Shown here in pieces: positions 20,723-64,000 of a stretch of 64,000 nt of DNA (positions are counted from its first letter, which is position 1; every line of letters begins with the position of its first letter). The stretch is from Candidatus Omnitrophota bacterium (GTDB lineage Bacteria > Omnitrophota > Gorgyraeia > Tantalellales > Tantalellaceae), in contig JBDRLO010000024.1 of NCBI GenBank assembly GCA_043812935.1, positions 9,295 through 73,294 of the forward strand, read 5' to 3'. The notes under the pieces are model-generated. The model did not search any database and was not told the DNA's origin. It saw only the letters and a list, made by a program, of their open reading frames with translations. The position numbers and the translations under genes are program-made.

Positions 20723-20772
20723 GAAGCCAGATAGTGTTAAAGTAAGTTGGCGAAGGCGGACGTGCTTGGTTT

Positions 20773-20836: not shown

Positions 20837-20881
20837 AGGTAATGAAAAAAGAAAAGGTAATAAACGTTACAAACAATAATT

Positions 20882-21076: not shown

Positions 21077-21086
21077 AAGATAGAAA

Positions 21087-21494
21087 ATGAGGAATTGTAG
21101 TATGATTAAAAAAACGTTTATTATTGTAACTGCCGTGATAGTTTTTGCTGCATTGGTTATAGGTGGTTTAAAAGTTTATGAAGCTAAAGAAATAATGAAC
21201 ATGCAGATTGATGAAATAGATCTTTCAAATGTGCCGGACGGTGTTTATGCGGGTGAAGAAAAATATATGACTTTTGTGTGCAAAGTTAAAGTGACTGTTA
21301 AGAAAAACCAAATAGTTGATATAGAGGCTTATGAAGGGCGAGAGAGTGAATATGTTGAAAGAGCGAAAGAAGTTGCGGACAGGGTGATCGCGAATCAGTC
21401 ACTTGAAGTTGATACGGTTACAGGCGCTACTGTTACAAGTAAAGCTATCCTTAAAGCAATAGAAAACGCGTTAAAATCTTCACGCATTGACTAA
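21087..21494 (+). CDS. FMN-binding domain protein (membrane-anchored)
   Basis: N-terminal TM; C-terminal VDTVTGATVTSKAI motif of FMN_bind domain. Confidence 0.6.
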   Translation: MRNCSMIKKTFIIVTAVIVFAALVIGGLKVYEAKEIMNMQIDEIDLSNVPDGVYAGEEKYMTFVCKVKVTVKKNQIVDIEAYEGRESEYVERAKEVADRVIANQSLEVDTVTGATVTSKAILKAIENALKSSRID

Positions 21495-21581
21495 ATGCAG
21501 ATGATCTTTACATCCAGATAGCTGTCGTAAAATTTTTAAATTTTTTAGTTTTCAAATGTATATGTTATAATATGCTGTAAA

Positions 21582-23165
21582 TTGAAAATGCGGGAGCATC
21601 TTATGAAAAAAATTGTTCTGATCGCAAGTATGATATTAATGCTGAATACGGGTGTTGAGGATGCCGTAAGTAAACAGGCTGATTTAGCGGGTATTTGGTA
21701 TCCTGGTTCTCCGGAAAAACTGAAAGCGGAAGTCGCGACGTATTTAAATAATGCTCAGGTTGGACATATTAACGGAAACATTATCGGCGCAATAGCGCCT
21801 CATGCGGGTATCAGGTTTTCCGGACCGATTGCGGCATATACTTACAGGGCTTTAGCCGGGCAAAATTTAACAAAACTGGTTATAGTTGGGTTTTCGCATA
21901 AGTACTATTTTCCTAATACCGTATCAGTTTTTTCTGACGATAGTTTTATCACACCGCTTGGAAGCATAAAAATAGATATGCCGCTTTCCGAAAAAATTAT
22001 GGCAAGTAACCCTAGTATTAAAAACTTTCCGGAAGCGTTTGCCTCAGAGAATTCAATCGAACTTCAGCTCCCGTTTATTCAAACCGTTTTTGGCGATAAT
22101 ATCCAGGTTGTACTTATATCTCTTTGCGATCAAAGCAAAGAAAATGCAGAAATGTTGGCAGACACGCTTTATAAAGTTTTAAAAGATGAAAAAAATTTTG
22201 CTGTGGTTGCGTCGACTGATATGTGCCATTATTTGTCGTATTTTGAAGCGGAAAGAAGGGATAGGAATACGATCAAAGAGATACAGGCGTTTGAACCTGA
22301 ACTTTTTTATTTAGCAAGCGCTAAAGAAGACCATAAACTTATGTGCGGCTACGGCGCAGTATACGCGGTTATGGAAACAAGCAAAAAACTTGGAGCGGAT
22401 AAGTCAATTGTTTTAAAATATGGCAATTCCGGAGATTTTGCGCCGCAGACAAAAAACAGTGTGGTTGGTTATTTGAGCGCTTTATTTATTAAAACTGCCG
22501 AAGAAGATAATACAAATGTTGTTGGAGACGAAAAAAATACAGAGATCAATTTTCCAGAAACCTCGGAAACAGAAGATGCTGTTCAGGGTAAAAAGGAGGA
22601 AATCGGCATGTTAAATGAAGCCCAAAGAAAAGAACTTTTGAAAATTGCCAGAGATTCAATAAAGCTTTATCTTGAAAAGGGTAAGCGGTTAAACGTGCAG
22701 ACGGATGATGCCCTGCTTAAAGAGAATATGGGCGCTTTTGTAACTTTGCATGAAACCGGTAGATTGCGGGGATGTATCGGAAGGATAATTGCGGCAGGCC
22801 CGCTTTATCTTGCTGTGCGGGATATGGCAATAGCCGCGGCAGTAGAGGATCCAAGATTTAGGCCGTTGAGTTTGGATGAACTGGGTAAGGTGGATATTGA
22901 AATATCTGTTTTATCACCTATGAAAAAAATAAATGATTCTGACGAAATTGTTATGGGCAAACATGGGGTAATGATAAAGGACGGGTTAAGAAGCGGAGTT
23001 TATTTGCCGCAGGTTGCCGATGAAACGGGTTGGGACAGGGAAACTTTTATGAATAGTTTGTGTGTCAATAAGGCCGGCCTGTCTCAAGATGCTTGGAAAA
23101 CAGGTTCTTGCGAAATTTATGTTTTTACGGCGGAAGTTTTTGGCGAACATAATAAACCAGAATAA
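21582..23165 (+). CDS. AmmeMemoRadiSam system fusion protein (Memo-like AmrB domain + AMMECR1 AmrA domain) with N-terminal signal-peptide-like segment
   Basis: Memo-type AGIWYPGS...IAPHAGIRFSGP motifs; C-terminal AMMECR1 GAFVTLHETGRLRGCIGRI; N-terminus MKKIVLIASMILMLNTG resembles a Sec signal peptide. Confidence 0.75.
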   Translation: MKMREHLMKKIVLIASMILMLNTGVEDAVSKQADLAGIWYPGSPEKLKAEVATYLNNAQVGHINGNIIGAIAPHAGIRFSGPIAAYTYRALAGQNLTKLVIVGFSHKYYFPNTVSVFSDDSFITPLGSIKIDMPLSEKIMASNPSIKNFPEAFASENSIELQLPFIQTVFGDNIQVVLISLCDQSKENAEMLADTLYKVLKDEKNFAVVASTDMCHYLSYFEAERRDRNTIKEIQAFEPELFYLASAKEDHKLMCGYGAVYAVMETSKKLGADKSIVLKYGNSGDFAPQTKNSVVGYLSALFIKTAEEDNTNVVGDEKNTEINFPETSETEDAVQGKKEEIGMLNEAQRKELLKIARDSIKLYLEKGKRLNVQTDDALLKENMGAFVTLHETGRLRGCIGRIIAAGPLYLAVRDMAIAAAVEDPRFRPLSLDELGKVDIEISVLSPMKKINDSDEIVMGKHGVMIKDGLRSGVYLPQVADETGWDRETFMNSLCVNKAGLSQDAWKTGSCEIYVFTAEVFGEHNKPE

Positions 23166-48310: not shown

Positions 48311-49219
48311 TCATAGACATATATGTGATATGAGTTGATATCCCTTTAAAATGCTCTCAGAGACCATCTGTGACATCATTTGGATGTTCCCCATATCACC
48401 CTTAGAAAGTGCTAAATAGTAATTATATTGGTCCTCAATACGGATTAAAGCCGGCGGAAAACCGTTTAAAAGAAGCTGTGTGTTCATTAAAAGCCGTCCA
48501 ATACGGCCATTTCCGTCAAAAAATGGATGAATTGTTTCAAATTCATAGTGATCCGCGGCAATCTTTTTTATAGGATTTGTGCCGTAATTATTAATGTTAT
48601 TCAAAAGTTTTTTCATTTTTATTGGAACCATTTGTGCTGATGGTAATTTTACTTCAGTATTAGTCAAATTTACGTAACCTGTACGGTATTTTCCCGGAAG
48701 TTTGTGGTTAAAATTATATAATACTATTTTATGCAATTCTAAAATGTAATTTTCAGTAATTTTAAATCCAGGTTTAATCATATCCAGCATAAAAACTAAT
48801 GCGTTTCTGAGATTAACAGCTTCAAGTATTTCCAAAAAGTGCCGTCCCTTTACTTCCCCATTTTCAAGAGCTTGTTCGGTTTCTTTAAGCGTCATTCTGC
48901 TGCCCTCAATTGCATTTGAATTATATGTGGTTTCGAGAAAAAATTTTTCCCGAAGCTCCCTATTGGTGTGCAGTTTTTGTATTGGATTGGGCATATTTTT
49001 AGCGATTTGTATAACGTGCGGCGTTAAGTCAATGGTTTCTTTGAAAAGCGTGTCCAAGTGCCTGGATTGTGCCGGGTGCGGTTTTATTCCCTGAGTTAAC
49101 CATCTATGGATTGTGTTGTATGATACTTCAAGCACTCTGGCAATTTCTGTTTGTGTAAGCCCCGCTGAATTGATTAGCTTTTCAAGTTTTTCTTTGTCTG
49201 TTAATGTGACATTTTTCAT
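48311..49219 (-). CDS. Fic-family protein with N-terminal HTH
   Basis: Fic motif HPFFDGNGRIGRLLMN; N-terminal HTH LTQTEIARVLEVSYNTIHRWL. Confidence 0.85.
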   Translation of the reverse strand: MKNVTLTDKEKLEKLINSAGLTQTEIARVLEVSYNTIHRWLTQGIKPHPAQSRHLDTLFKETIDLTPHVIQIAKNMPNPIQKLHTNRELREKFFLETTYNSNAIEGSRMTLKETEQALENGEVKGRHFLEILEAVNLRNALVFMLDMIKPGFKITENYILELHKIVLYNFNHKLPGKYRTGYVNLTNTEVKLPSAQMVPIKMKKLLNNINNYGTNPIKKIAADHYEFETIHPFFDGNGRIGRLLMNTQLLLNGFPPALIRIEDQYNYYLALSKGDMGNIQMMSQMVSESILKGYQLISHICL

Positions 49220-49400: not shown

Positions 49401-50066
49401 TTACGACAAAGACTTAAGAATTGTTTTCTCTAGGTATTCAAATTTGTTTTCAATATAGTAATGCCGCATTTGTGTGTCCAACAACGAGCCCAGAGCAACT
49501 TTAAAATCATTAGCACTGAACGAAGTAGCTTTTTTAAGGAGTTTTTTTAAATTATCAGTTTTTGTGTTAAGAGTGATTCCTTGTCGTAATAAAAATTCAA
49601 GGTCAAAAAAATCACGTATTGCTTTTCTTTCTAATGCGGCTTCAATTTTATTTTTCATGGCCTGTTCAAGTGTGTGTACGCGCATAATTACCTGTTTTGT
49701 GCTGTATTGTGAAAAAGCGATTCTTTCCTGAAAATCACATTTCATCAAAGCTTTGCGTATTTCAATTTTAAGCCGTCTGGGGTAATTTTTTGAACGGATT
49801 TCAAATAAAAGCGTATAAAATTTTATTTGGGCGTCAGTTATATCATAGTCTGTATTTTTTAAATATTGATGTAATTTTTTAAAATAATCTTTAACAGGCA
49901 TTTTTCGAATAAACCAAAAATCCAAATCGACAGAATACCTGTTTAAATCGTAACATAGGCGCAACATGGTTCCCCCACCGAAGACCAAAGGCTCTAAGAA
50001 CTTAGCGCTTTTCAATTGATTTAAAACTTCAATTTCAAATATTTCGTGTTTTTGCAGAACATTCAT
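49401..50066 (-). CDS. nucleotidyltransferase AbiEii-family toxin (DUF1814)
   Basis: N-terminal GGTMLRLCYDLNRYSVDLDF pattern typical of AbiEii/AbiGii; overlaps the upstream antitoxin-like gene. Confidence 0.7.
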   Translation of the reverse strand: MNVLQKHEIFEIEVLNQLKSAKFLEPLVFGGGTMLRLCYDLNRYSVDLDFWFIRKMPVKDYFKKLHQYLKNTDYDITDAQIKFYTLLFEIRSKNYPRRLKIEIRKALMKCDFQERIAFSQYSTKQVIMRVHTLEQAMKNKIEAALERKAIRDFFDLEFLLRQGITLNTKTDNLKKLLKKATSFSANDFKVALGSLLDTQMRHYYIENKFEYLEKTILKSLS

Positions 50067-50634
50067 TTTTGAAAAGCTCCTGGGTTTTTTTTGGAAAATT
50101 TTTTAATAAAAATTTTAATTTAGTTTGGTTTAATTTATTGAAATCGATAGAAGATATGTCGAAAAAATATCTATTCAACGACATTAAATATAATGCGTCT
50201 AAAAAAGCCTTTTCAGGGGTTGCTATGAAAAAAACCTTATTTTTAATAAAATCAGCATACAGAGCGTGTTGTATTTTAGTATAAGTTAAAACAGTGTTTT
50301 TTATTTCCAGGCGTTTTGTCCTTTTTATTGCGATTGATTCTATAAAGCCCTGCTGGATGAGGCTGGTTATTTCATAAAAAGAAAGTGCAGTCATCAGGGA
50401 TATATATGATGGCACTTGTACAACATTTGCCAGGAGAAATTTCTCCTCAATTTCTAATGTGACCCAACGGTTGTTTAAAATATATAAATTACGTTTTATT
50501 CTAACCAACAAGCCTTGTTTAACGTAGCGATTTGCTTCTACTCGGGCAGATTTTAATTTTGTGCCGAGAGTTTTTGCTATCTCCTCATAGCCGAAATACA
50601 GTTTAGTAATGTGATTTAATTTTGCGTAATTCAT
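50035..50634 (-). CDS. AbiEi-family antitoxin-like transcriptional regulator
   Basis: 199 aa, N-terminal wHTH-like segment, 32-nt overlap with AbiEii gene (typical type IV TA arrangement). Confidence 0.5.
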   Translation of the reverse strand: MNYAKLNHITKLYFGYEEIAKTLGTKLKSARVEANRYVKQGLLVRIKRNLYILNNRWVTLEIEEKFLLANVVQVPSYISLMTALSFYEITSLIQQGFIESIAIKRTKRLEIKNTVLTYTKIQHALYADFIKNKVFFIATPEKAFLDALYLMSLNRYFFDISSIDFNKLNQTKLKFLLKNFPKKTQELFKNECSAKTRNI

Positions 50635-51131: not shown

Positions 51132-51458
51132 ATGACAATTGATGTGCTCTTCCCTATTCTATATGCTTTCTTTTTTGCTGCAGTAATGTCATATTTGTTT
51201 TCCAGGATCGAGTCGAAAAGCGAATGGGTTAAATTTGTGTATATGATCCCGCTTTTAGCTGCTTTTTCTGATTTTCTGGAAAATATCTTTATTGTGGTAA
51301 TGCTTTTCAATTATCCGAAAGAGGTTTCTCTTGCCGCTGTTTTTGGTGTTTTTTTTACCCGCTTTAAATGGATGTTGTTTGATGCATGTATAGTGGGTAT
51401 AATATTGGAAATCTTTTGGTTAATGTGTGTAAAAATTAAAAGGAGAAAAAATGAATGA
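51132..51458 (+). CDS. small polytopic membrane protein (hypothetical)
   Basis: 3 TM segments. Confidence 0.35.
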   Translation: MTIDVLFPILYAFFFAAVMSYLFSRIESKSEWVKFVYMIPLLAAFSDFLENIFIVVMLFNYPKEVSLAAVFGVFFTRFKWMLFDACIVGIILEIFWLMCVKIKRRKNE

Positions 51459-51966
51459 AAGATTGTATGAGGAAGGTAAAAATGAGTTTTCAAAATTATA
51501 TGTTTTAGTTGAAAATGTTTTATTCATAATTCAATTTATACTTGCTTATTTGGGGATGAAAGTATTCAAAATAAGCAATATTCCCCTTCTTTCTTTGATA
51601 TATATCATTTTTGCGATGGTAATGCTTGTTTTTATCCTGAGAAAGCATTTATGTGCAGGATGCTATTATTACGGTAAATGGTGCCATTGCGGGTGGGGAA
51701 AGCTTTCCTCTCTGATGTATAAGAAGGATACAGGCAATATTGAGCTTGGTGGAAAACTTGCGGGAATGACATGGGGCGTACTTATGGGCGTACCGTTATT
51801 AGTTATGATACTGGCTATAATAATCCGGAAAGTAACTTTTTTTGAAATTGCGCCTATTTTAATTCCATTTATTATTGTTGTAATGATTAATGGTGCTATG
51901 CATGCGGCTGACTGTAAAAAATGTAAGATGAGGTTTGTTTGTCCCGGCAGTGCGGCTAAAAAATAA
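51451..51966 (+). CDS. Cys-rich membrane protein (hypothetical)
   Basis: TM helices plus CAGCYYYGKWCHCGWG and CKKCKMRFVCPG clusters. Confidence 0.4.
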   Translation: MNERLYEEGKNEFSKLYVLVENVLFIIQFILAYLGMKVFKISNIPLLSLIYIIFAMVMLVFILRKHLCAGCYYYGKWCHCGWGKLSSLMYKKDTGNIELGGKLAGMTWGVLMGVPLLVMILAIIIRKVTFFEIAPILIPFIIVVMINGAMHAADCKKCKMRFVCPGSAAKK

Positions 51967-52111: not shown

Positions 52112-55100
52112 TTAGAGTGATGTAAATGCCTGGGCTTCTGCTTTATATTCAACTCGCAATTTGTCATATTCAAAGAAATCAGCATCAGGGAGCAGGAATA
52201 CTATTCGTGATTCCTCATCATAGTTTGCTATGATCGGAGGACGCTTAGTAGGCTGTAGCCCTATTGCCAGTTCTATTGTTAGGGAGAGCATTTTGACCAG
52301 CATAACCTTTTGAATTAATTGCTGGTTCCCGTCCTTACAGAATTTTATTTTTGAAGTGTTAATACTTGCAATAAACGCCCTTTTTTCTTTCGGAGTACTT
52401 TTTAAACCGCTAAACGTAGCCGCATTAATTGTTGTGTCAGAGCCCATGGCAATAATGTCTGACAGTTCTGTCGAGGTTTTTTTTGCCTTTTCCATGATTT
52501 CCGCTGCCAGATTTTCGCTGGTGCTATGTACGAAAAATACGTTATCAAGCCCCATATCCTTTAGCCGCTTTTCAAGGCGGCACATTTCCTTAGGTTTGTT
52601 TTCAGGAGGCAGAAGCTCTTTAAAAAGCGGAAAAAGCAGGTTGTGCTGAAGCTGGTCGTCTTTATTTGGTATCCAGTCTGTTTCAAACGCGACAATGAGG
52701 TTTTTATTTTGTTGTTGCTTAAGCCGAGCAAGTGCTATAAGCGAATTTATAATGCTGGCCGGTTCAAGTTCGTGCAAGTGTTTTGTAATATATTCCATAT
52801 CTTGGTCGATCTTTGCCGGAACTTTTGCAAGGTTTGCCAACTCAGCGAAATGCTCCTTTTTTTCAAGGTCTTTTATGAAGCCCATTGTTTGTAAAGTTTT
52901 TCCGATTTCCTGGCGGATTTCCTCGGAAAGGTCTTTTTTAGTAAGCGGCTGAGGGCGCAAGTCTTGAGTAAAACCGTCAATGCTTTTAAGGAAATTCCGG
53001 ATCGCGTTTGTTTTTTTTACAAGGTTTACGCGGATATTATTTGCCTCAGCTTTTGCTATGTGCAATAGCCGGATAGTTTTATCGTGTGTTTTTTTCGGAT
53101 GAGGTGCCGCGGTTTCAGGCGTTTCTGTAATTTGTAATTGTGTTGACGCGTTTTGCGCATTGTCGCCTAATTTATCTTTTTGAATGGCGGCAATAGCGCC
53201 TTTTGGGATTGGAGGATCAGTTTTTACTGGCAATTTTGTTTCTGGCGTTTCAACCATTCTTGTTTCCGGATCTTCTTCCAAGCTTGTCGTTAAAATATGT
53301 TTGAAAAAACATTTCATTGCAAAGTATAAAGCAGCTAATACCGCAATGATTAATGTTAATTTTAACGTAAAAATGCCCGGGTTATGTTCGGTTTTGAGAC
53401 ATATTTCAAAAAGATTTTGTGCCGACGCCGGGTTTTGAAAGAAATTTATTATTAATGGAACAGTTGGGATTGCCAATAGAAAAGGCAAAAGTGCCCGGAT
53501 ATTCTTTTTATCCGACGATTTATTGCCGGAGATTTTGTTTATTATTGATTTTACGAAAAATTGTATAATGTAAAACGCGATTAAAAGGAAAAATACGTAA
53601 TTAAGATAACTTATAACCGGGGAAATACGTTTTACTGTTGTAAGAAAACCGGAATAGTTTAATAATCCGGCATGTGATTGCCCTTCCCAGAAAGATACTA
53701 TTGAGAAAACAATAGCTGAAATCGTAACTAATAAAGGTAACATTGCTTTCATTGCGTTTAAGAAAGAGTTTTTCTTTCCGTTTGTTTTTAATGTTTCAGT
53801 ATCAGTTATTTTAATAACTTTTGAGTCCGCTACTGTAGAAAAGTTCTCCATTAACGAAACAGTTGTCCCGTTTTGGATTTGTTCCTTGCTCATTTTTTGA
53901 GGGTCCACCAGAAAAATCACGGTGGATTTAATAATAGGCGACATTTTGAAAACGGGCATATTCTTAAGCGCATGCGCGTTCATAATAACCATTTTTATTT
54001 TTCCGGATTGAATTGATTCAAGAAGCTTTGATTCCTGTTTTTTGTAAAGAGAACCGTCAACAAACAAAATATCTTCGTTAAATATATTTTTTTTAATTTG
54101 TGTAGCAAAGGTCATAAAACTTTTTGCAGTTGTAACATCCGGGGTTAAAACAAATTGAAGTGTTTGATTAACGCTGGTTTGGTGTTGTTTTTCTTTTTGC
54201 ATTTCGGGGACAGCGTTGAGTATGGCACTAAACTTGTCTTCAGTGTTTTTTGGAATTGAAGCTGCTCTTGTAAATATCCATATTTTACTATCTGTTTTAT
54301 AAGTGTGTTGTTTGTGTTTAGATTTATTTGACAAAACAAAGTTTTTGGCCAATAAAATAAAAGTCAGGGCTACAAGAAAAGTTGTTGCCAAGAGCCCCCA
54401 AATGGAAGGGCCTTTATTCCCTATTTTTTGGTTGGTTTCTAATATAAAATTAGCCGTTCCATTGCCCCGTAAATAGAAAACAGAAAACATTATGGGGATT
54501 ATATATTTAAGTGATGTCCAGAACGTGAAATCCTGAGTTTTTTTAGCTTCCGTGTTTGTTCTTGAGATGTTTGTATGTAGCTCCTTGAGTTTGGTCAAGG
54601 CGGAAGCTCGCCTGATAAGTATTGCACGTACGAGAATTACAAATACAGCTATGGAAAATACAATTTCGAATCCCACGATTAATTTGTTGAAAAAGGCTAC
54701 TTGGCAAGCTTTTTTTAATTCCTCTGTTAGCATTATTTGGGCAACTGGCTGTGATAATGCCCGGCTGCTTAACATAAAGATTGTTGTAGGTATAAGAAAA
54801 ACAAAAGGAACTATGCTTTTGAGGATATTTATAAGAGCGTTTTTCTTTTTCTGTGCACTGTTGAGAGTTTTTTCATCGGTCATATCCGCTATTGTAAAAT
54901 TGTTTATGTTGGAAAAACTTTTATGAGAATGAAGTGTTGCGGCTTTTTTAAGCTGGCTCCGGGTCATTGTAGGCCCGTCAACAATAAAAACGGCCAAAGA
55001 TTTAATATTAGACGATATTTTACGTTGAGGCATATCGCTGACATGGTCAGCGGCCATAATAACCCATTTTATTTCACCGGATAGAATGGATTGTAGTTTT

Positions 55101-58100
55101 TTTCGGATTTTTTCTTTGGAGGTTTTTGAGTCAATTAATAAAATATGTTTATCGGGCAGCGAGTCTCCATTCGATGTTGCCCTTAATGAGTGGTAAAAAC
55201 GTTTTGCGGTTTCAGAATCAGGGGTTAAAACAAATTGTATAGTTTGCTCAAGAGGAATTTCATATGAGCCTTCGTTTATTAAGCCACTGATAAATGTTTT
55301 AATGCGGGCATATTTATCTTTCGGCCTGTGCAGTACGGGAATTTTTTTCGATGTTTCGATGCTGTATTTTGGTGCGGCAGTAGAAATTTTTTGCGGCAGC
55401 ACCCGTTCTATGGGGGTAGTAATATGTTTTAAATGGGTAACGGTAGCCGGGTCTTTCCCCCCTCTGGTTCGAGGAATTACAGCTTTTGGTTCTTTTCTAT
55501 GCTGCAAATGAATGACTTTATCATTTTGGTCATTCGCGGGAGCAATGCGGATCGTGTTTTGGAGTTTTTTTGCCCTTTGGCAGATTCTCGTGCTAAATAC
55601 TCCTTCTTCTTTAGTTAAGATGGAATCAAATAAAGTTGCGCAATTATAAAACTTTTCAGATTTTATTTTTTGAAGGGTTTCCGCGGCTAATAACCTGGTT
55701 TCAATGTCGTTGGTTGAAACCAGAGCTGCTATTTCCAGCACGAATTCCGCTTTTTCATATTGGGTATAATAAAGATCAGGATATTTTATCCTTCCAAGAG
55801 CTGCTATGCCCAAATTTTTTATTGTGTGATTAGAAGCATTAACATCTGCCAATGCTTTTGTAAACATATCTTCTTCTGTATATTCTCCCAGTGTTTCCAA
55901 AATTTGTTCCGCGTCAGACCTGACATTAAAATTATTTTCCACTAACAACTTGCGTATATGCGGGACAAGCTCTGTTACTTTTTTTTCAAAAAGAAGTTGA
56001 TCGTCCTGAGCGATTATTTTTAAATATGTTTTCAAGGCATATTTGCGCGCGTATTCATTTGTGTTTTTATGGAATAGCGCTTTCTCTAAAATAGTAATTT
56101 TTTCAGAGGAATCGATTTCCAGAAAATCCAATGCTGTTATTGCGCCGTATTGCGAAAATTCAGGCTTTTTTGTAAATAACGTTCTTTTAATTTTAGGGAT
56201 TGCCAATTCGCCGAATTTTGCGAGTTCCCTGCTTGCGGGAAAATTATATTTAAGAGGATCGGATGGCGTTATAGTTATAGAGTGTAATAACTGTCCCAGG
56301 GCAGAAACAGCTTTTTTTCTAATATTCTTGTTGGAAGACGCGGAAAAATTACCCAATTGCTGCCAGGCATATAGTTGTTCTTCAGGAGAAGTATCTTTAT
56401 AGGTTAAATCAGCAAGATATTTTTTTATCTGTAATTGTGCTGAAAATTTCCCCTTTTTTTCCAATTTTATGGTTGTTTTGTTACGTATTTCGATATTTGA
56501 GCTTGATAGTTTTTTTCTGGTAGAGACAATAATGTAAATATATATCACGAATTCTATAAAACAAAAAATGAGAGTTAGTTCTATGAAATTTTTCAGGGTA
56601 AAGTTGTTCCGGTAAAGTCTGATACATTTTGTTAAAAATGGTATTTTTGTTTGATTAATATTTAAAGATTTATCTGCTGCATTTAGTACTACCGGAACAG
56701 CTAAAAGAAAATACAGCAAGCAGGTAATGATTTTTGATTTTTTTAAAGGTGATAATATGTCTTTTAAACTTTCAGGTTTCTTTTGTTTTTCCGCGGCTGC
56801 TGTTGTGTCTTTTTCGGCTTTTATGTTTTGCCGGGGTGTAGAATGGATAATTTTCTTTAATAATGTTTGAGCTTTTAAACAAAGCGTTTCATCAAAAATA
56901 GGGGGTTCGATGCCTATGATATCGCGCAAAAAACCGGCACAATCGAAAAATTCCGCGGCTCCAATATTTAGAAGCGCTTCTACGGCCGATAAGCGGGTTG
57001 CAGGATCATCCTTTGGATGAAGAGCGATTGTTTTTAAAATAGTACATGCTTCGTTATGAAACGTTTCAGAAAGTGGAGTATAGTTTATTTGTCCAAGTGC
57101 AGTAATTCCGGCACTTCGTGTTTCCTGGTCAGGATCTTTTATGTCTGCCAAAGCTTTATCAAAGCTATCTATGGCAGTAAGTATTTTCCAGTTATTCAAA
57201 ATTTGTTTGGCATAATGGCGTACAGGTTTATAACTATTTTTTAACTGTGAACGTATAAACGGCGTCCAATTAGTTATATTTATTTCAGAGGTCGGGGTAC
57301 GTGACATTTGCCAAATCATCCCCAAGGCATAATGCTGAACTTTTTCTTCGAGTTTTACATTACCAGTCAAAAGTATTTTTTCTAAAAATTTGAGTTTCTT
57401 GTTTTCTTCAATTTGCAAAAAGCCCAAAGCAATTATTCCGCTGTATTGCAACAGTTCGTTATTTTTTGTTAACAGTGATCGTGCAATTTCAGGAATTGCT
57501 AAATCACCGAATTTTGATATTTCCCAGGCAACAGGAAAAATGTCCTTAACATTAGAAGATGCTACATTGGTTTTGTATGCTAATATCCGTCCCAGCGCTT
57601 TTACGGCGTATTTTTTTATATCAAGGTCATCAGTTTCACTTAAGTTCGACATGTTACCAAGAGTTTTCCACGCAATTTCTTGTTTTTCTTCAGAAGTATC
57701 CCGAAACTTTAAATCTGAAAGGTATTTTTGTATTTGTAAGATTTTATTTGCGTTTTCTTCGTATAATTTTAATTTTTTTGCGGCTTTTTCGCGTCTTGCG
57801 CTGAGACTGCTTGTAAGGTTAAACACACAAATCACATGTTTCCAAATGAGCCGTGTAACTCCAATAAAAATGCTGACACTTATTAAACCGATTAAAAAAT
57901 GCTTAAGACTAAAATTGAAACGAAGGTTTCTTATAAGAGTAGTAAGGTGCCTTATCTCATTTTGGCTTATTTCAGGATATTTTTTTAGGAATTCGTCAAG
58001 GTTAGGTAGAATTAATACTGCCGTCAGTCCGGATGTCATGATTTCAGAATTCTTTATATATTTTAATAATTCCTTAAATTTACCCCAGCGTTTATTCTTA

Positions 58101-58771
58101 AAGGCTGTTTTTGTATCAGAAATAATGTTTTTTTCAGGGTTTTGAATTAATAATTTTTCTTTAGGTGGTACTGCCGTTTTAGTTAAACTTTTCGGTGCTT
58201 TATCGGCCACTGGTGCGTCTGTAAAAAGTTTTATGACGTATTTATTGGATTCAAAAAGTGTTTCGCCCTGCAATTCTTGCGCGGAAGGAGATGCTTTTTT
58301 CGCAACCAATAGTAAGGATTCAATATTATTCGGGTTATATGGAAGGGCAAGTATGTCATTCTTTTGTATATATTTTGGGGCTTTTCTTGTGCTGTTTGGA
58401 TTCTTTAGTTTTTGTAGTAAGTATTCCAGTGTAAAAATATATTCTAACGTTACATTTGCCTGTTTTTCATATGCGCACGTAAGGCTTGTGTCCAGAGCCG
58501 AAATTGGAAGCTGGTTATCATATAGGTATTTTGCGATATCCAGGATTATGTTTTGTAACACAGCATCCGCGGCAATTGACTCACGGAATGTTTCCCCGTT
58601 TTGAGTGAGCATTTTTTCCTGGAAAATGCCTTGACCGGAAATTGTAGGTGCGGTAACAGGTTTTAAAAAAGTTAAAGAAGGATTACTCCATGAAATATCC
58701 GAAGAAAGAAGAGTACATATTAAAAAAAGTGAAATGATTTTAAAGGTAAAATAACTTTTTATTTCATTCAT
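52112..58771 (-). CDS. giant (2219 aa) polytopic membrane protein with two HEAT/PBS-lyase-like repeat blocks and three copies of an unassigned alpha/beta domain
   Basis: uninterrupted 6.66-kb ORF with RBS; signal/TM at N-terminus, several TM clusters, HEAT-like units (KALGRIL, IIALGFL, ITALGQI, AVEALLNIG), internal tandem duplication, domain paralogous to the C-termini of the proteins at 60514 and 61864. Confidence 0.7.
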   Translation of the reverse strand: MNEIKSYFTFKIISLFLICTLLSSDISWSNPSLTFLKPVTAPTISGQGIFQEKMLTQNGETFRESIAADAVLQNIILDIAKYLYDNQLPISALDTSLTCAYEKQANVTLEYIFTLEYLLQKLKNPNSTRKAPKYIQKNDILALPYNPNNIESLLLVAKKASPSAQELQGETLFESNKYVIKLFTDAPVADKAPKSLTKTAVPPKEKLLIQNPEKNIISDTKTAFKNKRWGKFKELLKYIKNSEIMTSGLTAVLILPNLDEFLKKYPEISQNEIRHLTTLIRNLRFNFSLKHFLIGLISVSIFIGVTRLIWKHVICVFNLTSSLSARREKAAKKLKLYEENANKILQIQKYLSDLKFRDTSEEKQEIAWKTLGNMSNLSETDDLDIKKYAVKALGRILAYKTNVASSNVKDIFPVAWEISKFGDLAIPEIARSLLTKNNELLQYSGIIALGFLQIEENKKLKFLEKILLTGNVKLEEKVQHYALGMIWQMSRTPTSEINITNWTPFIRSQLKNSYKPVRHYAKQILNNWKILTAIDSFDKALADIKDPDQETRSAGITALGQINYTPLSETFHNEACTILKTIALHPKDDPATRLSAVEALLNIGAAEFFDCAGFLRDIIGIEPPIFDETLCLKAQTLLKKIIHSTPRQNIKAEKDTTAAAEKQKKPESLKDILSPLKKSKIITCLLYFLLAVPVVLNAADKSLNINQTKIPFLTKCIRLYRNNFTLKNFIELTLIFCFIEFVIYIYIIVSTRKKLSSSNIEIRNKTTIKLEKKGKFSAQLQIKKYLADLTYKDTSPEEQLYAWQQLGNFSASSNKNIRKKAVSALGQLLHSITITPSDPLKYNFPASRELAKFGELAIPKIKRTLFTKKPEFSQYGAITALDFLEIDSSEKITILEKALFHKNTNEYARKYALKTYLKIIAQDDQLLFEKKVTELVPHIRKLLVENNFNVRSDAEQILETLGEYTEEDMFTKALADVNASNHTIKNLGIAALGRIKYPDLYYTQYEKAEFVLEIAALVSTNDIETRLLAAETLQKIKSEKFYNCATLFDSILTKEEGVFSTRICQRAKKLQNTIRIAPANDQNDKVIHLQHRKEPKAVIPRTRGGKDPATVTHLKHITTPIERVLPQKISTAAPKYSIETSKKIPVLHRPKDKYARIKTFISGLINEGSYEIPLEQTIQFVLTPDSETAKRFYHSLRATSNGDSLPDKHILLIDSKTSKEKIRKKLQSILSGEIKWVIMAADHVSDMPQRKISSNIKSLAVFIVDGPTMTRSQLKKAATLHSHKSFSNINNFTIADMTDEKTLNSAQKKKNALINILKSIVPFVFLIPTTIFMLSSRALSQPVAQIMLTEELKKACQVAFFNKLIVGFEIVFSIAVFVILVRAILIRRASALTKLKELHTNISRTNTEAKKTQDFTFWTSLKYIIPIMFSVFYLRGNGTANFILETNQKIGNKGPSIWGLLATTFLVALTFILLAKNFVLSNKSKHKQHTYKTDSKIWIFTRAASIPKNTEDKFSAILNAVPEMQKEKQHQTSVNQTLQFVLTPDVTTAKSFMTFATQIKKNIFNEDILFVDGSLYKKQESKLLESIQSGKIKMVIMNAHALKNMPVFKMSPIIKSTVIFLVDPQKMSKEQIQNGTTVSLMENFSTVADSKVIKITDTETLKTNGKKNSFLNAMKAMLPLLVTISAIVFSIVSFWEGQSHAGLLNYSGFLTTVKRISPVISYLNYVFFLLIAFYIIQFFVKSIINKISGNKSSDKKNIRALLPFLLAIPTVPLIINFFQNPASAQNLFEICLKTEHNPGIFTLKLTLIIAVLAALYFAMKCFFKHILTTSLEEDPETRMVETPETKLPVKTDPPIPKGAIAAIQKDKLGDNAQNASTQLQITETPETAAPHPKKTHDKTIRLLHIAKAEANNIRVNLVKKTNAIRNFLKSIDGFTQDLRPQPLTKKDLSEEIRQEIGKTLQTMGFIKDLEKKEHFAELANLAKVPAKIDQDMEYITKHLHELEPASIINSLIALARLKQQQNKNLIVAFETDWIPNKDDQLQHNLLFPLFKELLPPENKPKEMCRLEKRLKDMGLDNVFFVHSTSENLAAEIMEKAKKTSTELSDIIAMGSDTTINAATFSGLKSTPKEKRAFIASINTSKIKFCKDGNQQLIQKVMLVKMLSLTIELAIGLQPTKRPPIIANYDEESRIVFLLPDADFFEYDKLRVEYKAEAQAFTSL

Positions 58772-59071
58772 CGATGTCGTACCTTCCCTTAAATACGGTT
58801 AACAACTGGGCTAGATATGTGACGTTTCTATTGATTTTAATAAATTTGTATTATAATACCATGAGGAAAAAGAAAAAACCAGAAAAAAACAAACTTTTTT
58901 AAGGTTAATGCATATTGTTGTTATTTTTCGTTAACGCCTGCAACACAATGAGAATGGCAGGTTTTAATCGGAGACTGGCACTGTAAAGAAGTTCAGCATA
59001 GCTTTTGGTAATTTTTTTCCTTGGACACTATTGGTCCCCTACGACCTACATAATAGTTTAGTAGTTAATAA

Positions 59072-59575
59072 TTAATATCGTTTAGGGGGTTTATAAGTTT
59101 TTGGAACCTTTGGCGGTGTATAGGTTTTTGGTATTTTAGGTAATCTTGGAGTGCTTTGAGTTTGCTGGCGAAGCATTCTTTGGGTTCTGTTGAAGTTTTC
59201 AACTTGTTTTAGTGCCTTGAGTTGACGTTGGGTTCGTTGAAAATTTTTCCAGGAAACTTGGCTGTTAACGGATTTAAGTAAAGTAAAAAGAGTGTCCCGG
59301 TCAACTGAATCTATCGGTAGGCCATTATATTCAAAAGTTGTTATTCCCTCTTCATTTGTTATGCTTTTTATGCCCGGTGTTGTGGCAAGAATGTCAGGAT
59401 TGTATTTGAATATGCCTTTTAATCGTGAAACGATTTCCTCTTTTTTAAGTTCAGGTGTTTCTGTTTCTGAAGAATCGGCAGTATTATCAGTTGTTTCTTC
59501 CGAAAAAGATAAATTTATATTGAATGAAGAAACTATATAAAACACGATAATTACCGTGAGCATGAATTTTTTCAT
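59072..59575 (-). CDS. secreted protein with Pro/Lys-rich C-terminal repeats (hypothetical)
   Basis: signal peptide; C-terminal PKIPKTYTPPKVPKTYKPPKRY. Confidence 0.45.
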   Translation of the reverse strand: MKKFMLTVIIVFYIVSSFNINLSFSEETTDNTADSSETETPELKKEEIVSRLKGIFKYNPDILATTPGIKSITNEEGITTFEYNGLPIDSVDRDTLFTLLKSVNSQVSWKNFQRTQRQLKALKQVENFNRTQRMLRQQTQSTPRLPKIPKTYTPPKVPKTYKPPKRY

Positions 59576-59594
59576 AGAACTCCTATTTTTTAAT

Positions 59595-60374
59595 TTACGA
59601 TATATTTTTATTTTTACGACGAAGTAGTAATACTGAGAGCAGGCATAATAAACTTACAATACAAATACTGAGCATGGTTATTTGCGATAATGTCAGCCAA
59701 TGCCATATTGTAATACTGTCAATTCGCAAAAGCTCAACAAAAAAACGAAAAAAACCATACATGCAGAATGTGCCGAAAAAAATGGCGCCGGGAACATGAT
59801 TTTTTTTGTAAAAATGGCGCATAAGAAAAAATATAATTGCCAGAAAAATGATTGAATATGCCTGTGTCGGATGGCTTGGAACGATCGGCGGAGGCATGGT
59901 TTTAAAAGCAACTGCCCATGGTAGTGTTGAAGGTTTGCCATAGCAGCAGCCGTAAGACAGGCACCCTATCCTGACAAATAACATTTGAATGATAATAAAC
60001 GGTGCCGCATAGTCAGCTGTAATGAGAAAGCTTATACGTTTTTTTCGGAATTTTGTAAATATCACGAGTGCCAGGACTTCAAACGCAAACGCTCCAAGAG
60101 AAGCATACCCCACACGGCGGAACATATATTTAAAAGAAGGGTATCCTGCTTCCTGTATAGCCTGCCAATGCAAAAATGAGAATAAAACCTTTGATCCTAA
60201 AAGCCCCATGTAACCCATTAAAATACCGCATAGAAAAATACCGATGCGGCTTATGGGAAACATTTTCGGCCGGTTAAGAACCGCAAGGGCTATTGCGATT
60301 ATAGCACCCGCAAGGAGACAAACATCCCATGTAGGGACATGAAAGCTTGTCCCCTCAAATAGTGTTGGAAACAT
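59595..60374 (-). CDS. lgt: prolipoprotein diacylglyceryl transferase-like
   Basis: 7 TM; Lgt-like motifs PTQAYSIIF (compare HPTQLYE) and FRFFVELLR (compare RFxVEFFR). Confidence 0.55.
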   Translation of the reverse strand: MFPTLFEGTSFHVPTWDVCLLAGAIIAIALAVLNRPKMFPISRIGIFLCGILMGYMGLLGSKVLFSFLHWQAIQEAGYPSFKYMFRRVGYASLGAFAFEVLALVIFTKFRKKRISFLITADYAAPFIIIQMLFVRIGCLSYGCCYGKPSTLPWAVAFKTMPPPIVPSHPTQAYSIIFLAIIFFLMRHFYKKNHVPGAIFFGTFCMYGFFRFFVELLRIDSITIWHWLTLSQITMLSICIVSLLCLLSVLLLRRKNKNIS

Positions 60375-60513
60375 AGGAAACCTTTCTTTTCTTTGTAGCT
60401 AGTATATACGATGTTCTTGTATTTGTCGAGTTTAGCCAAAGAAATTTTTATTATATATTGAAAATCAAGCCTATTTTTCAAAATATAGTTATTTTTAGTT
60501 TTTTTGGTTAATT

Positions 60514-61686
60514 TTATGCGCTTATATCCACATGGAACAGGTTATCAATGAATTCGCGTATGGTTTCTGAAATGCGCAGGCGTGAGATGTTTTCAAGCGC
60601 GGTGAATACCTGTTTCAAACGGCTCAATGTGTTTTCGGAACATTCAATTGCTATGATATGCGGAGATTTTCCGGAATCTGTATAACGTTTTAAAAGGTTT
60701 GCGGCGGCTATCATTGGTATAATACGGTTAAGCCTTTTCCCTTCCTCGTCTTTTGTCAGGATATTTTTACCAATTATGACATAACTGGGGGTGCCTGGTT
60801 CCCCGTTGATTTGTAAAGATTTAATCAGCTGATTTGTTCCGGTATCGGATTCAGGCGAAACAATGGAAACTGCAAATGGTAAAATTTCCGGGATTTTTTC
60901 TTCTTTCTTTTTGATTTTTAAAGCTGTATTTATTGCGCCGACAATATCTTCTGTGCCGTCCGGAATTGTAATATCTTTTGGATCCAATATAATGACGTTT
61001 TCAAGCAGAATAAGTTTTGATGCTGTATTTAACGGAAGAGGCGCGTTTGGATTATTAATAATCGAAACATAAAAATCGTTATGCGCAAATTTTTCTATTT
61101 CCGGAAGCATGGTATTTATATCAATGCAGGGGAGTCGACTGTCTATAACAATTGCTTTCGGAATTTTGGGCATTAAGGTAAGAACTCTGTTTATTGTTTG
61201 ACCCGTCCTAATATCCTCTTGTTCTGCCGCAATTTTCCTGTGTTTAAGAGCAATATTCGCGAATGATACATTGGGATTGTTTCTTAAATAATTGATGAAT
61301 CGTGTGTGAAAGGCAAGAAATGTGTCAATACCTTTGTCTTTTTTGTGCATTGTGCCGGCTGTATGAGCATCAATGGAAACGCCGATAGCCTCATTGTAAC
61401 TTTCAAGCCAAGGTTCCGTATCATTCGGGTTAACGGAGGGTTGTTCTTTGGGTAACTCCGGCTGTGTATTTGAAAAAACATCGGAATTATATGTATCAAA
61501 AATTGATTCGAGAATATCATGCCGCTTTTCGTCAGGAAGTGCTTTTTCAAGTATTTCCCGCATCTCACTACGGGTTCTATTTTTTAATTTTCCTAAGGTG
61601 TCTCTAGAAAAACCGCCCAGATATGGATTGACAAGGTAGGGATATATGTTCGCCAAAGCGACGAGATCGGAATGTTTATTTGTCAA
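60514..61686 (-). CDS. protein with C-terminal alpha/beta domain paralogous to giant-protein domain (unknown function)
   Basis: C-terminal ~240 aa align with C-terminus of 61864 protein (IIAIECSEN / VVAVECSEN, LLKRY / ILKRY) and with the three giant-protein copies. Confidence 0.55.
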   Translation of the reverse strand: MTNKHSDLVALANIYPYLVNPYLGGFSRDTLGKLKNRTRSEMREILEKALPDEKRHDILESIFDTYNSDVFSNTQPELPKEQPSVNPNDTEPWLESYNEAIGVSIDAHTAGTMHKKDKGIDTFLAFHTRFINYLRNNPNVSFANIALKHRKIAAEQEDIRTGQTINRVLTLMPKIPKAIVIDSRLPCIDINTMLPEIEKFAHNDFYVSIINNPNAPLPLNTASKLILLENVIILDPKDITIPDGTEDIVGAINTALKIKKKEEKIPEILPFAVSIVSPESDTGTNQLIKSLQINGEPGTPSYVIIGKNILTKDEEGKRLNRIIPMIAAANLLKRYTDSGKSPHIIAIECSENTLSRLKQVFTALENISRLRISETIREFIDNLFHVDISA

Positions 61687-61863
61687 GTCCTGTATCTGGG
61701 CGGTTTTTCTGCCGTTTCCAGCATGTTCTCTGTTGTTTTACCTCCCTGCATATTAAAAAATATATGCGGTCGTTTATCGGAAACTTTATGTTCAAAATCT
61801 TCTTTATTTCTAACAACAATTTACTTACAATAAAAAAAACCATCAAACTAAAAAACTAAACGA

Positions 61864-64000
61864 TTATAATGATCTGGTGGTTTGAATGATGGCGCTGATC
61901 TTTTCCGTGATTTCGTCGTTGATGTTTAGGCGTGTGATCACGGTTAAAATGATATCCATAAGGTTGCGAATCTTTTGCAGTATGTTTTCTGAGCACTCCA
62001 CTGCTACCACATTTGTCTGTTTTTCTTTGGATAGGTATCTTTTTAGGATACTTGTAAGCGCCATAACCGGAAGCATATTCAAGATGTGTTCGGTTTCAGC
62101 GTCTTTTTTGTCCACAACACTCCTGCCGGCAATAATAAAATTGGCTTTTTCTGCCGCAGGGCCCTCAAGGTGTGACAGAAATCCTTCCGCCATGGATTCG
62201 GTCGTGACGACCGACATTGCCGCAAACGGTAAATCATCGATCCTGAGTTTCGCAAGCAGAAAGTCTCTTGCCTGGCGGACAATGGGTCGCGCGGGGTCAA
62301 TACCCGTTAAGTGTGTAATATTGTCCGGCAATATGAATTCACCTATCGCTTTTTGCATACGGTTTTCCTGATCGATCAGGCACATATATACAGTTGGGTT
62401 TGCTTCTGCCAATCGTTCAACCGCAGGCAGTATACGGGTAAGGACATCTTCTGGTACGTCTCTCAAGTCATATACAATTGCCTGATTCTTCGGTATAAAG
62501 TCTTTGGTCAGCAGTATGGATAGGTTCTTGGCGAGTTCTTCCTCTACTGTTTCCGCCATCGCGGTATTTTCAGTATTATTCAGAAGTTGTTTTCGTATTA
62601 TATTCTTCAGTTCATACGGAAGTAATCCTATGCTTTCGAAAAAGTCTATATCTTTATTTAAAAGCTTTAATTGAAATGTTTTCTCTTCTGTCTCTGCCAT
62701 TTCTTTACCGTTGTATTCCTGCTTTCCCTCTAATGCCATTTGTAGATAATAACTTAAACCCTCTGTTCCAAAGATATCCTTATTATTTTTGTAAAGCGGA
62801 GTCTCAAATAAATCATTTAATTCAGGATGATTAACACTGAAGTAATTTTTTATTTGCTCTATTTTTTGAGGACCCAAATCATTATGTATCGAATGAATAA
62901 ATTCGTGGATAAATGGTCCAACATCTGTACTGATATAAGCACGTTGGTATATTGAATCTATGTCACAAAACGCTCCGCCCTCTTGACTATATATAACATA
63001 TTGTTGCGATATGTTGGCATCAAAACCCTTTTCAAGCATAAATAAAAGAAATTTCTTAATAACAGGCTGGGCAGTAAGACTTTTTTTAAATTCTTTCCAA
63101 TCTGTTTCGTTTTCTATCCATGAACTACAAATAGTAGGCTGAAAGTCAGCTTGCGCAGGAACCATTTCAGAAGTTTTGGATTCTATAAAAGTTGCAATTT
63201 TATCAGAATACTCATTCGGTAATTGATAATATGGTGTGCGAATACCATTAAGTGCAGTTTCTCCGAAGACAACCTCTTCCTCTACTTTCATTGCAATGTT
63301 CTTAATCTCATCATTTGAGTAGAAAACCATAAAATATACCTCTCCTCCATCAGCAAGATTACCACTATACACGAGTATACGGCTATACGCACTATGTCGG
63401 TATTCATCTAAATATTCAGCTTTAAAGAAGTTAACATGGTTAAAAAACTTTTCAATAGATTGAATGCTTAATTCACCATCTGGTATTCCTGTTATCCATT
63501 TTCGTAAAATAGTTGCAGCGGATTCGTTGTAACGCAATTTATTTAAAAGCTTTTCTTCACGGCTATCGTCAATGTCTGTGTCTTTTTCTTCTGTTTCAAT
63601 CAAAAGATCAGGATCATAATTATTCGCGAACGCTCCTATCCGCGCATCTATTGTGTTGTTGACGGGAGTTTCTCTTACAAGTTCTGTTGTAAGCGTTATC
63701 ATAGCATTTTTAAGGCGGTCTTGCCTCATTCTGCTTATTGAGACAGAGTCCAGTTGCGCTAAATACGGGTATTTTTTCACAAAAGCTGTTCGCCTTACGT
63801 ATTTTACAATATCATTTATGTTGTTTGCTAAATCCTGCGGAGACATGTCAATTAGAAATGTGGAGATTCCTGCTTTCGCAGGAATAACAGGTACTGGTTT
63901 CTTAACAATCGTAAATTCTATATCCGGATAATCCGAAGACAGTTGTTTCAGTGCATCTTTGTTAATTTCGACAATACCGACGATTGGTCGAGACGGTTTT
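61864..64000 (-). CDS. HExxH-motif protein with C-terminal paralogous alpha/beta domain; reading frame remains open to the window edge (5'-partial)
   Basis: HEFIHSIH motif in N-terminal region; in-frame sense codons continue upstream of the annotated Met at 63846 with no stop to position 64000 and no RBS before that Met. Confidence 0.55.
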   Translation of the reverse strand, partial: KPSRPIVGIVEINKDALKQLSSDYPDIEFTIVKKPVPVIPAKAGISTFLIDMSPQDLANNINDIVKYVRRTAFVKKYPYLAQLDSVSISRMRQDRLKNAMITLTTELVRETPVNNTIDARIGAFANNYDPDLLIETEEKDTDIDDSREEKLLNKLRYNESAATILRKWITGIPDGELSIQSIEKFFNHVNFFKAEYLDEYRHSAYSRILVYSGNLADGGEVYFMVFYSNDEIKNIAMKVEEEVVFGETALNGIRTPYYQLPNEYSDKIATFIESKTSEMVPAQADFQPTICSSWIENETDWKEFKKSLTAQPVIKKFLLFMLEKGFDANISQQYVIYSQEGGAFCDIDSIYQRAYISTDVGPFIHEFIHSIHNDLGPQKIEQIKNYFSVNHPELNDLFETPLYKNNKDIFGTEGLSYYLQMALEGKQEYNGKEMAETEEKTFQLKLLNKDIDFFESIGLLPYELKNIIRKQLLNNTENTAMAETVEEELAKNLSILLTKDFIPKNQAIVYDLRDVPEDVLTRILPAVERLAEANPTVYMCLIDQENRMQKAIGEFILPDNITHLTGIDPARPIVRQARDFLLAKLRIDDLPFAAMSVVTTESMAEGFLSHLEGPAAEKANFIIAGRSVVDKKDAETEHILNMLPVMALTSILKRYLSKEKQTNVVAVECSENILQKIRNLMDIILTVITRLNINDEITEKISAIIQTTRSL

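Follow-up and report, generated by a model that had tools for sequence, protein, structure and literature searches.

Three alpha/beta domain types and two C-terminal tail families in a gene cluster encoding a large HEAT-repeat membrane protein of Candidatus Omnitrophota

A run of five open reading frames (ORFs), all on the minus strand of a Candidatus Omnitrophota metagenome-assembled genome (MAG), encodes proteins whose alpha/beta regions are, as judged by sequence comparison, of three separate types with no detectable sequence relation. Two of these, here called C1 and C2, are modelled as unassigned Rossmann-like modules that form C-terminal tails. The third type (mid1 and mid2) is found inside a HEAT-repeat membrane protein of 2219 amino acids (aa). 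The cluster extends from 52.1 kb to the edge of the stretch of DNA that was analysed (64,000 nucleotides, hereafter the window), which has 37% G+C and contains RNase P RNA and three tRNAs. We tentatively favour the view, while granting that it may well be wrong, that the region is a conserved neighbourhood of modular, inner-membrane-anchored scaffold proteins, small relatives of giant HEAT/TPR membrane proteins, with tails that would act as cytoplasmic docking handles. To our knowledge, Omnitrophota hold the largest predicted proteins known, and the organisation of their membrane-anchored giants is an open question.

The features of the cluster, all on the minus strand, are as follows.

52112-58771, minus strand: 2219-aa protein with HEAT repeats and many hydrophobic segments
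57902-58771, minus strand: N-terminal module of the 2219-aa protein, a signal/anchor segment and a domain of ~150-250 aa
56732-57814, minus strand: HEAT array 1, residues 320-680 of the 2219-aa protein (Pfam HEAT_2 E 3.4e-14)
55442-56494, minus strand: HEAT array 2, residues 760-1110, an internal duplicate that is not in the homologue at locus L005
54812-55384, minus strand: mid1, residues 1130-1320 of the 2219-aa protein
53744-54364, minus strand: mid2, residues 1470-1676 of the 2219-aa protein
52115-53092, minus strand: C2 tail module, residues ~1894-2219, with helical and alpha/beta subdomains
59072-59575, minus strand: p167, 167 aa, with a signal peptide and a Pro/Lys-rich tail
59595-60374, minus strand: lgt, prolipoprotein diacylglyceryl transferase (Pfam LGT E 4.6e-32)
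60514-61686, minus strand: p390, a 390-aa ORF with a TTG start
60517-61815, minus strand: orphan C1 tail module, comprising the p390 ORF and ~43 homologous upstream codons across a 1-nt frameshift
61864-64000, minus strand: 3' end of gene X ('p660'), at least 711 codons, 660 or more aa from the ATG at 63846
62497-63579, minus strand: putative gluzincin-like metallopeptidase domain in X, p660 residues ~90-450
61867-62511, minus strand: C1 tail alpha/beta subdomain of X, p660 residues 446-660

Several observations in an earlier note on this DNA, made from the sequence alone, agree with this inventory. The ORF calls confirm a run of co-oriented minus-strand genes at these coordinates. The cluster does contain lgt and a secreted Pro/Lys-rich protein (p167, with a hydrophobic segment at residues 4-22), as well as a very large HEAT-repeat membrane protein with ~11-12 hydrophobic segments, mostly hairpins, in a hydropathy scan. 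Further, the region still has no pathway assignment.

Three domain types in place of one

The earlier note had described a single domain of 150-250 aa repeated five times in three genes. To compare the copies, the segments were dissected and aligned all-against-all by BLASTP, and profiles were compared by hhalign. Only two pairs of alpha/beta regions align, namely residues 171-390 of p390 with residues 446-660 of p660 (28% identity over 214 aa, E 3.4e-12) and mid1 with mid2 (35% identity over 169 aa, E 1.7e-23). Every BLASTP pair across the three classes gave E of at least 0.25. In hhalign, the 32-sequence C1 profile against the 16-sequence C2 profile reached a probability of 0.6% in local and 2.4% in global mode, the mid profile against C1 or C2 reached 0.08-0.4%, and thin two-sequence profiles likewise gave no cross-class link. 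With cross-class scores at chance, the five regions are not mutually alignable and the single five-copy domain is not supported. A duplication that the earlier note missed is that of the HEAT arrays (array 1 against array 2: 38.5% identity, E 6.5e-56).

The motifs quoted in favour of one domain (KAIVIDSR, KHILLIDSK, NLIVAFETD, and ECSEN versus STSEN) amount to a strand with an acidic residue. In the models, ECSEN is on a late strand of p390 and STSEN comes after strand 2 of C2; therefore, these two are not positional equivalents. Sub-significant alignments keep choosing one strand-helix-strand unit in all three classes, which explains the impression of a repeated domain and is not evidence of homology. 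C1 and C2 may still be very distant relatives. The alpha/beta regions had been called unassigned, and indeed no Pfam or NCBIfam family covers them.

The C1 tail family

C1 was searched exhaustively, using HMMER with an alignment of p660 and p390 against 1.84 billion representative proteins, and only 43 proteins were returned. A word-indexed search with p660 gave no match. The C1 hidden Markov model (HMM) matches 34 fetched proteins of 83-7,715 aa in addition to p390 and p660, which score E 3e-118 and 6e-114, respectively, with the seed model. The alpha/beta matches all stop at, or a few residues from, the last residue of the carrier. Among the matches checked, all those with a named organism are from Candidatus Omnitrophota. 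Likewise, a scan of the GTDB genome collection with a five-sequence alignment as query gave four loci with C1, all in Omnitrophota MAGs.

The module is ~390 aa long, with a helical subdomain ahead of a seven-strand Rossmann-like one. An AlphaFold2 run on p390 with a 23-sequence alignment (predicted local distance difference test (pLDDT) 78.4, predicted template modelling score 0.74) placed helices at residues 6-171 and a seven-strand alternating beta/alpha part at residues 177-390 (pLDDT 85-93), which closes with a long final helix. The residues D182 and R184, situated just after strand 1, are invariant (32/32), as is P324, and R334 is kept in 31 of 32 sequences. The end of strand 1 reads (V/I)IDxR, and a helix with the pattern RINRLIP...NLLKR serves as a further marker. 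The Cys of 'ECSEN' is frequent, yet many members have A, L, G, S or E in its place.

C1 carriers bear TPR or HEAT repeats upstream of the tail. In 11 of them, 400-660 residues separate the last membrane hairpin from the C-terminus, and neither p390 nor the tail of X has a hydrophobic segment. The C-termini read TAVSL, TARSV and VDISA (60517-60531 and 61867-61881 in the window). No C1 or C2 member runs past its conserved non-polar terminus. One carrier, a TPR protein of 4,340 aa at locus L013, is encoded directly downstream of a Bat-like operon of MoxR AAA, DUF58, VWA, VWA and TPR genes; the two are listed at 1-9447 and 10001-23023.

The C2 tail family

The C-terminal 320 aa of the 2219-aa protein provided the first link, matching the C-terminus of a 2,583-aa ROK/DUF218/HEAT protein (P0002) at E 5e-32. 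A profile search added 20 more proteins beyond P0002, all matched at the C-terminus. The C2 HMM accordingly covers 21 fetched proteins besides the 2219-aa protein, which is itself matched over residues 1901-2219; one match, on a 940-nt contig, stops before the end of the profile. Like C1, the family is narrow, and those of its carriers with a named organism are from Omnitrophota. The cargo preceding C2 includes HAD (P0018), LigT-like (P0008), YdcF (P0016) and HEAT/ROK (L009) domains. C1 and C2 are thus spread over many unrelated proteins of Omnitrophota MAGs and metagenome contigs, and the earlier picture of a paralogous family concentrated at one locus does not hold.

C2 comprises ~325 aa, with a helical subdomain ahead of an alpha/beta one. 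In the AlphaFold2 model of residues 1894-2219 (pLDDT 72-95), the second half is built from strands and hairpins in succession, not from alternating units. The sequence E-T-D-W-I-P after strand 1 is invariant in 16 of 16 members. The C-terminal residues are ALQAA or ALAAA in the family and AFTSL (52115-52129) in the window protein. The ALQAA and ALAAA ends resemble the LAA end of the ssrA tag.

Two neighbourhoods of C2-tailed genes were recorded. At L001/L002, the gene for P0002, which combines the N-terminal module with a C2 tail, lies between genes for proteins of 15,934-16,403 aa, 1,842 aa and 2,305 aa or more (CofD domain), and all of these genes are on one strand. At L010/L011, a gene at 12799-17658, which is 1.6 kb downstream of the gene for the C2-tailed P0009, encodes 1,619 aa that include SecA_DEAD, SecA_PP_bind and Helicase_C domains.

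Anatomy and growth of the 2219-aa protein

The 2219-aa protein is a 100% match to P0001, listed at NCBI as 'MAG: HEAT repeat domain-containing protein [Candidatus Omnitrophota bacterium]'. Its last hydrophobic segment (residues 1800-1818) lies 419 aa before the end. The N-terminal module (N-module, residues 1-186), for which Pfam and NCBIfam hold no model, is shared with P0002 (E 3e-16), a 1,152-aa homologue at L005 (49%) and a 902-aa HEAT/ROK protein at L009 (25%). In all four proteins it is paired with a C2 tail.

The homologue at L005 aligns to residues 1-695 and 1736-2219. It lacks the stretch between them (residues 696-1735), with HEAT array 2, mid1, mid2 and some eight membrane segments. 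The additional ~1,040 residues of the window protein therefore take the form of blocks that combine membrane hairpin and domain. In a recent catalogue (10.64898/2026.06.07.730766), the long proteins of the phylum are described as having regularly spaced membrane helices, and growth by such blocks fits this description. The comparison thus shows a mode of growth through membrane-hairpin-plus-domain units and a duplicated HEAT array.

Four internal segments of the protein, at residues ~676-700, 1308-1340, 1665-1697 and 1755-1785, resemble signal peptides. Each has a Lys-rich stretch, a hydrophobic run, an AxA-like site (VVLNA/AD, RALS/QP, QSHA/GL and PASA/QN) and then a second membrane helix. 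These segments could be hairpins or internal processing sites.

The mid domains stand apart from both tails. Neither the fetched proteins nor two metagenome scans yielded relatives of mid1 or mid2, and the best PDB matches of the mid profile were a VapD chain (E 0.36) and L30e (E 0.65). Against Pfam Helicase_C, mid2 scored E 0.079 and 13.7 bits, below the 23.5-bit cut-off, mid1 gave no match, and the mid HMM reached E 0.1-0.5 with a local DEAD-box helicase. Since MAFFT placed mid1 on the C2 region, mid2 was folded without an alignment. The resulting AlphaFold2 model is of low confidence and has a beta-alpha-beta-alpha-beta pattern at residues 1568-1621. The series ...ILFVDG...SGKIKMVIMNAHA...VIFLVDP...EQIQNG resembles motifs IV to VI of Helicase_C (PF00271, RecA-like domain 2). 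However, the score is sub-gathering, the arginines of motif VI are absent and there is no partner DEAD domain. On sequence grounds, mid1 and mid2 may thus be called faintly Helicase_C-like.

Gene X and an orphaned C1 tail

The two smaller C1 proteins of the window had been taken as stand-alone paralogues, but neither is one. The frame upstream of the ATG at 63846 reads KPSRPIVGIVEINKDALKQLSSDYPDIEFTIVKK...TFLIDMSPQDL, also given as ...IVGIVEINKDALKQLSSDYPDIEFTIVKK...TFLIDMSPQDL. It is free of stops to the window edge, and the same sequence is internal in homologues of 708-7,557 aa. Therefore, p660 represents the 3' end of a larger gene, X, whose tail has an insert of ~350 aa between its helical and alpha/beta parts. 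Of 11 aligned sequences of this insert, 10 keep FIHEFIH (HExxH), and all have a downstream glutamate in TEGLxYYLxMAL. Its homologues in Omnitrophota and metagenome proteins of 368-1974 aa are likewise internal, and Pfam has no match to the insert. It is a putative gluzincin metallopeptidase outside the catalogued families.

As for p390, its whole length of 390 aa is 68% identical to the C-terminus of a 1,749-aa ORF at L005, and it is likewise 68% identical to a 1,576-aa TPR protein at L004 (P0024). At the DNA level, the window becomes colinear with L005 at a sharp boundary, position 61815, 49 nt past the stop codon of X and equivalent to codon ~1316 of the L005 gene. Upstream of the TTG start of p390, ~39 more homologous codons lie in another frame. 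The frame change results from a 1-nt length difference from L005 at ~61704-61707, beside an A5 run. The homology to the tail of a larger gene and the break in colinearity together mark p390 as an orphaned tail (3' fragment) whose gene body is missing here; the 5' 1,300 codons of the parent gene are present in related genomes and missing in the window. Other than the frameshift, p390 has no sign of decay, and its divergence is similar to that of its neighbours: amino-acid identity to L005 is 68% for p390, 78% for lgt, 71% for p167 and 42-52% for the large protein. For annotation, p390 and p660 are consequently not to be read as small paralogous proteins.

Another candidate stand-alone tail, the 388-aa P0025, was rejected. 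Its frame is continuous with the preceding giant gene and at L003 (5850-6100) runs upstream into a membrane hairpin and the GKTTIHYGEI motif of a gene of at least 1,980 aa. The in-frame continuation identifies this as a giant gene split by a frameshift.

A neighbourhood that recurs

The earlier note had proposed looking for this gene neighbourhood in other genomes, and it is seen in the related genome of L005. The order there is as in the window: a C1-tailed ORF, lgt, p167, the 1,152-aa homologue, Fic, MFS, LTXXQ and radical SAM genes. The neighbour p167 belongs to a family with a signal peptide, a conserved core, NFxRTQRxL repeats and a basic tail rich in PKTY. Neither Pfam (best E 0.089) nor NCBIfam has a model for it. 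Directly downstream of C1-tailed genes, homologues are encoded at L005 (71%), at L012 (39%, after a 7,557-aa protein) and, on the opposite strand, at L006 (37%). In total, p167 adjoins C1-tailed genes in four loci, and it was not found at C2-only loci among the loci examined. By comparison, lgt follows a C1-tailed gene only in the close relatives L004 and L005. The window lgt scores 111.7 bits with Pfam LGT (cut-off 24.9 bits) over residues 3-245 of 259 and falls under the NCBIfam equivalog cut-offs. We infer that it is a housekeeping neighbour.

Between the large protein and the MFS/LTXXQ/radical SAM block lie genes for a Fic/helix-turn-helix protein (48311-49219), an AbiEii/AbiEi toxin-antitoxin pair (49401-50634) and two small ORFs (51132-51966). 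The AbiE pair and the small ORFs look like an insertion because L005 has only Fic at this position. PADLOC families gave no match at E <= 0.01 among the four proteins tested, and on this absence a known anti-phage defence system was ruled out for the tails. A scan for promoters and terminators was uninformative (30 promoter-like sites observed versus 38.7 expected). Over 1-46 kb, where the plus strand carries most long ORFs, GC skew is strongly positive (0.15-0.31); by 62-64 kb, with genes on the minus strand, it has dropped to -0.05. This shift is probably an effect of coding-strand composition.

What the tails may do

On the reading that we favour, the tails would be cytoplasmic and serve as common handles for docking, assembly or quality control, gathering differently loaded polypeptides at one membrane-associated complex. 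The conserved free C-terminus (A-x-S/A-L/V/A) would be part of what is recognised, and the p167 family could be an envelope-side partner of the C1-tailed proteins. Docking is suggested because the module is always last, the final residues are kept and the cargo upstream is otherwise unrelated (TPR, HEAT, HAD, LigT, YdcF, ROK and the metallopeptidase-like domain of X). A cytoplasmic location is suggested by the membrane hairpins of the 2219-aa protein, the positive charge (Lys/Arg) after its second transmembrane segment, the lack of hydrophobic segments in the X tail and p390, and the cytoplasmic-type enzymes fused to C2, the ATP-dependent ROK and HAD enzymes among them. An always-terminal module on carriers of 83 to 7,715 aa is a testable candidate for an assembly, targeting or turnover handle, and the conserved secreted neighbour p167 is likewise a testable candidate.

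Several points weigh against this proposal. Docking is argued from position and distribution alone, and the invariant acidic residues at the end of strand 1 occupy what is the ligand site in Rossmann-like and HAD-like enzymes, so that a catalytic or ligand-binding role is equally compatible. Topology was taken from a hydropathy scan and not from a trained predictor. C1 and C2, which have no sequence relation and are unlike in the secondary structure of their second halves, may differ in function. Further, the word-indexed search behind the C2 family was not exhaustive, and organism names are attached to a minority of the hits. Finally, the frameshift at 61704-61707 could be an assembly error or a real mutation.

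The main rival to docking handles is that C1, C2 or both are enzymes of Rossmann, HAD or PTA type, or ligand-binding regulatory tails, working at the membrane as catalysts or sensors. D182 and R184 in all 32 C1 sequences and E-T-D-W-I-P in all 16 C2 sequences do sit at the C-terminal end of strand 1, where folds of this type usually bind a ligand. We nevertheless consider this role doubtful, as neither a DxDxT, P-loop nor GxGxxG motif is present, the Cys of 'ECSEN' is replaced in many members, and even profiles gave no Pfam, NCBIfam or PDB sequence match. Export or sorting domains resembling the C-terminal domain of the type IX secretion system, with p167 and lgt as envelope components, would account for the strictly C-terminal position with its conserved last residues, for the large carriers of membrane or surface type, and for neighbours that are envelope proteins (p167 with its signal peptide, and lgt). 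Secretion loci also lie beside Omnitrophota giant genes according to one report (10.1101/2023.11.21.568195). A sorting role is, however, very unlikely, since the hairpins and the positive-inside rule put the tails in the cytoplasm, ROK kinase, HAD and LigT fused to C2 are normally cytoplasmic, known sorting signals do not resemble a folded module of 325-390 aa, and no secretion genes lie within 52-64 kb. It is also improbable that the original proposal survives in the form of one alpha/beta domain present five times in three genes as a locus-specific, undescribed envelope or signalling system. Strand/helix alternation does recur in all five regions, the C1 and C2 models are both helical plus alpha/beta, the A-x-S/A-L/V/A terminus is common to both tails, and the sub-significant alignments share the unit ISIxTGES...NFVIAGK, NVFFVHSTSEN...DIIAMGS and HILLIDSK...IKWVIMAAD. 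Set against these are the chance-level cross-class BLASTP and hhalign scores, the latter also with deep profiles, the hairpins of the second half of C2 versus the alternating strands and helices of C1, the isolation of mid, which resembles Helicase_C if anything, and the dispersal of the families over many unrelated proteins and loci in place of clustering here.

A different kind of alternative concerns the history of the locus and is compatible with any of these functions of the tails. The tails could be exchangeable cassettes, in which case X would have gained a new C1 tail and the metallopeptidase insert by recombination near the YPDIEF...FLIDM junction, much as is known for CdiA/Rhs C-terminal cassettes, and the old tail would have been orphaned. 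The homology of the orphan to L005 indeed starts 49 nt past the X stop, just after the position equivalent to YSDINF/YPDIEF; the orphan lacks an upstream body and has a frameshift; and two divergent C1 subtypes, 28% identical, stand in tandem. We regard this as rather unlikely. It is a single case, and a simple deletion or rearrangement fits equally well. The body of X, which may or may not be orthologous to that of the L005 gene, is outside the window, and the 27 aa visible upstream of YPDIEF are nearer to the P0025 type than to L005. Further, lgt and no immunity-like gene follows the orphan, and the extreme C-terminus is conserved, the opposite of polymorphic toxins. A broader proposal combines cassettes with docking, making C1 and C2 two undescribed, Omnitrophota-specific tail classes that assemble giant proteins and small enzymes into one membrane complex, with p167 on the envelope side and with tails that can be exchanged or orphaned. 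As a whole, it is a speculative and rather unlikely combination. If true, exchangeable tails would offer a handle on how the giant proteins of the phylum are built, organised and diversified. Regardless, C1 and C2 deserve family models for annotation.

Comparison with known systems

No relative of C1 or C2 was found in Pfam, NCBIfam or the PDB, including by profile. The earlier suggestion of a degenerate CheY-like or Rossmann-like fold stands in its second half, as the C1 and C2 models are Rossmann-like, but not in its first, as there is no CheY signature. A CheY-like receiver gave no Pfam signal and was set aside on the motif of that family. HAD phosphatases were rejected because C1 has (V/I)IDxR and C2 has LETDWIP where DxDx(T/V) is expected, and there is no Pfam HAD match. 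A GTPase of the NG-domain kind (signal recognition particle/FtsY) was rejected too (Foldseek best E 8e-3, probability at most 0.51, TM score ~0.2), and the tails have no glycine-rich P-loop (GxxGxGK(T/S)) after strand 1. The tails are like HAD phosphatases and Rossmann-like domains of the PTA/PlsX type in having a three-layer alpha/beta/alpha sandwich with an acidic residue at the end of strand 1. They differ in lacking the DxDxT motif I and other HAD motifs, in an identity of 8-16%, or 8-11% in the comparison made with the p390 model, and in the absence of a profile match.

The arrangement of p390 and X is reminiscent of the orphan cassettes of polymorphic toxins (CdiA-CT and Rhs-CT; PMC3482391), in which a body-less 3' module lies downstream of a divergent module of the same kind. 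Unlike those cassettes, the tails in the window are conserved and not hypervariable, no immunity gene is present and a single example is at hand.

The closest comparison for the region as a whole is with the giant 'Archaeovorins' of Omnitrophota (10.1101/2023.11.21.568195; catalogue 10.64898/2026.06.07.730766). The differences are clear. The window protein has 2,219 aa and not tens of thousands, no SecA family matches it at E <= 1, and its one related trace is the weak Helicase_C signal of mid2. Type II secretion-like and pilZ neighbours are not among the genes at 42-52 kb (FeoB, radical SAM, MFS, Fic and AbiE); elsewhere in the window no search for secretion genes was made. In a term search of the two reports centred on C-termini, the C1 and C2 tails, the N-module and p167 did not come up. 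The likenesses are the phylum, the HEAT/TPR scaffolding and the many membrane helices at intervals of a few hundred residues, to which internal domain duplication and mixed ROK/HAD/YdcF cargo can be added. Further, C1 tails occur on proteins of up to 7,715 aa, and the gene for P0002 lies between genes for 15,934 and 2,305 or more aa. Overall, the large protein fits the known Omnitrophota kind of HEAT/TPR membrane protein as one of its small members.

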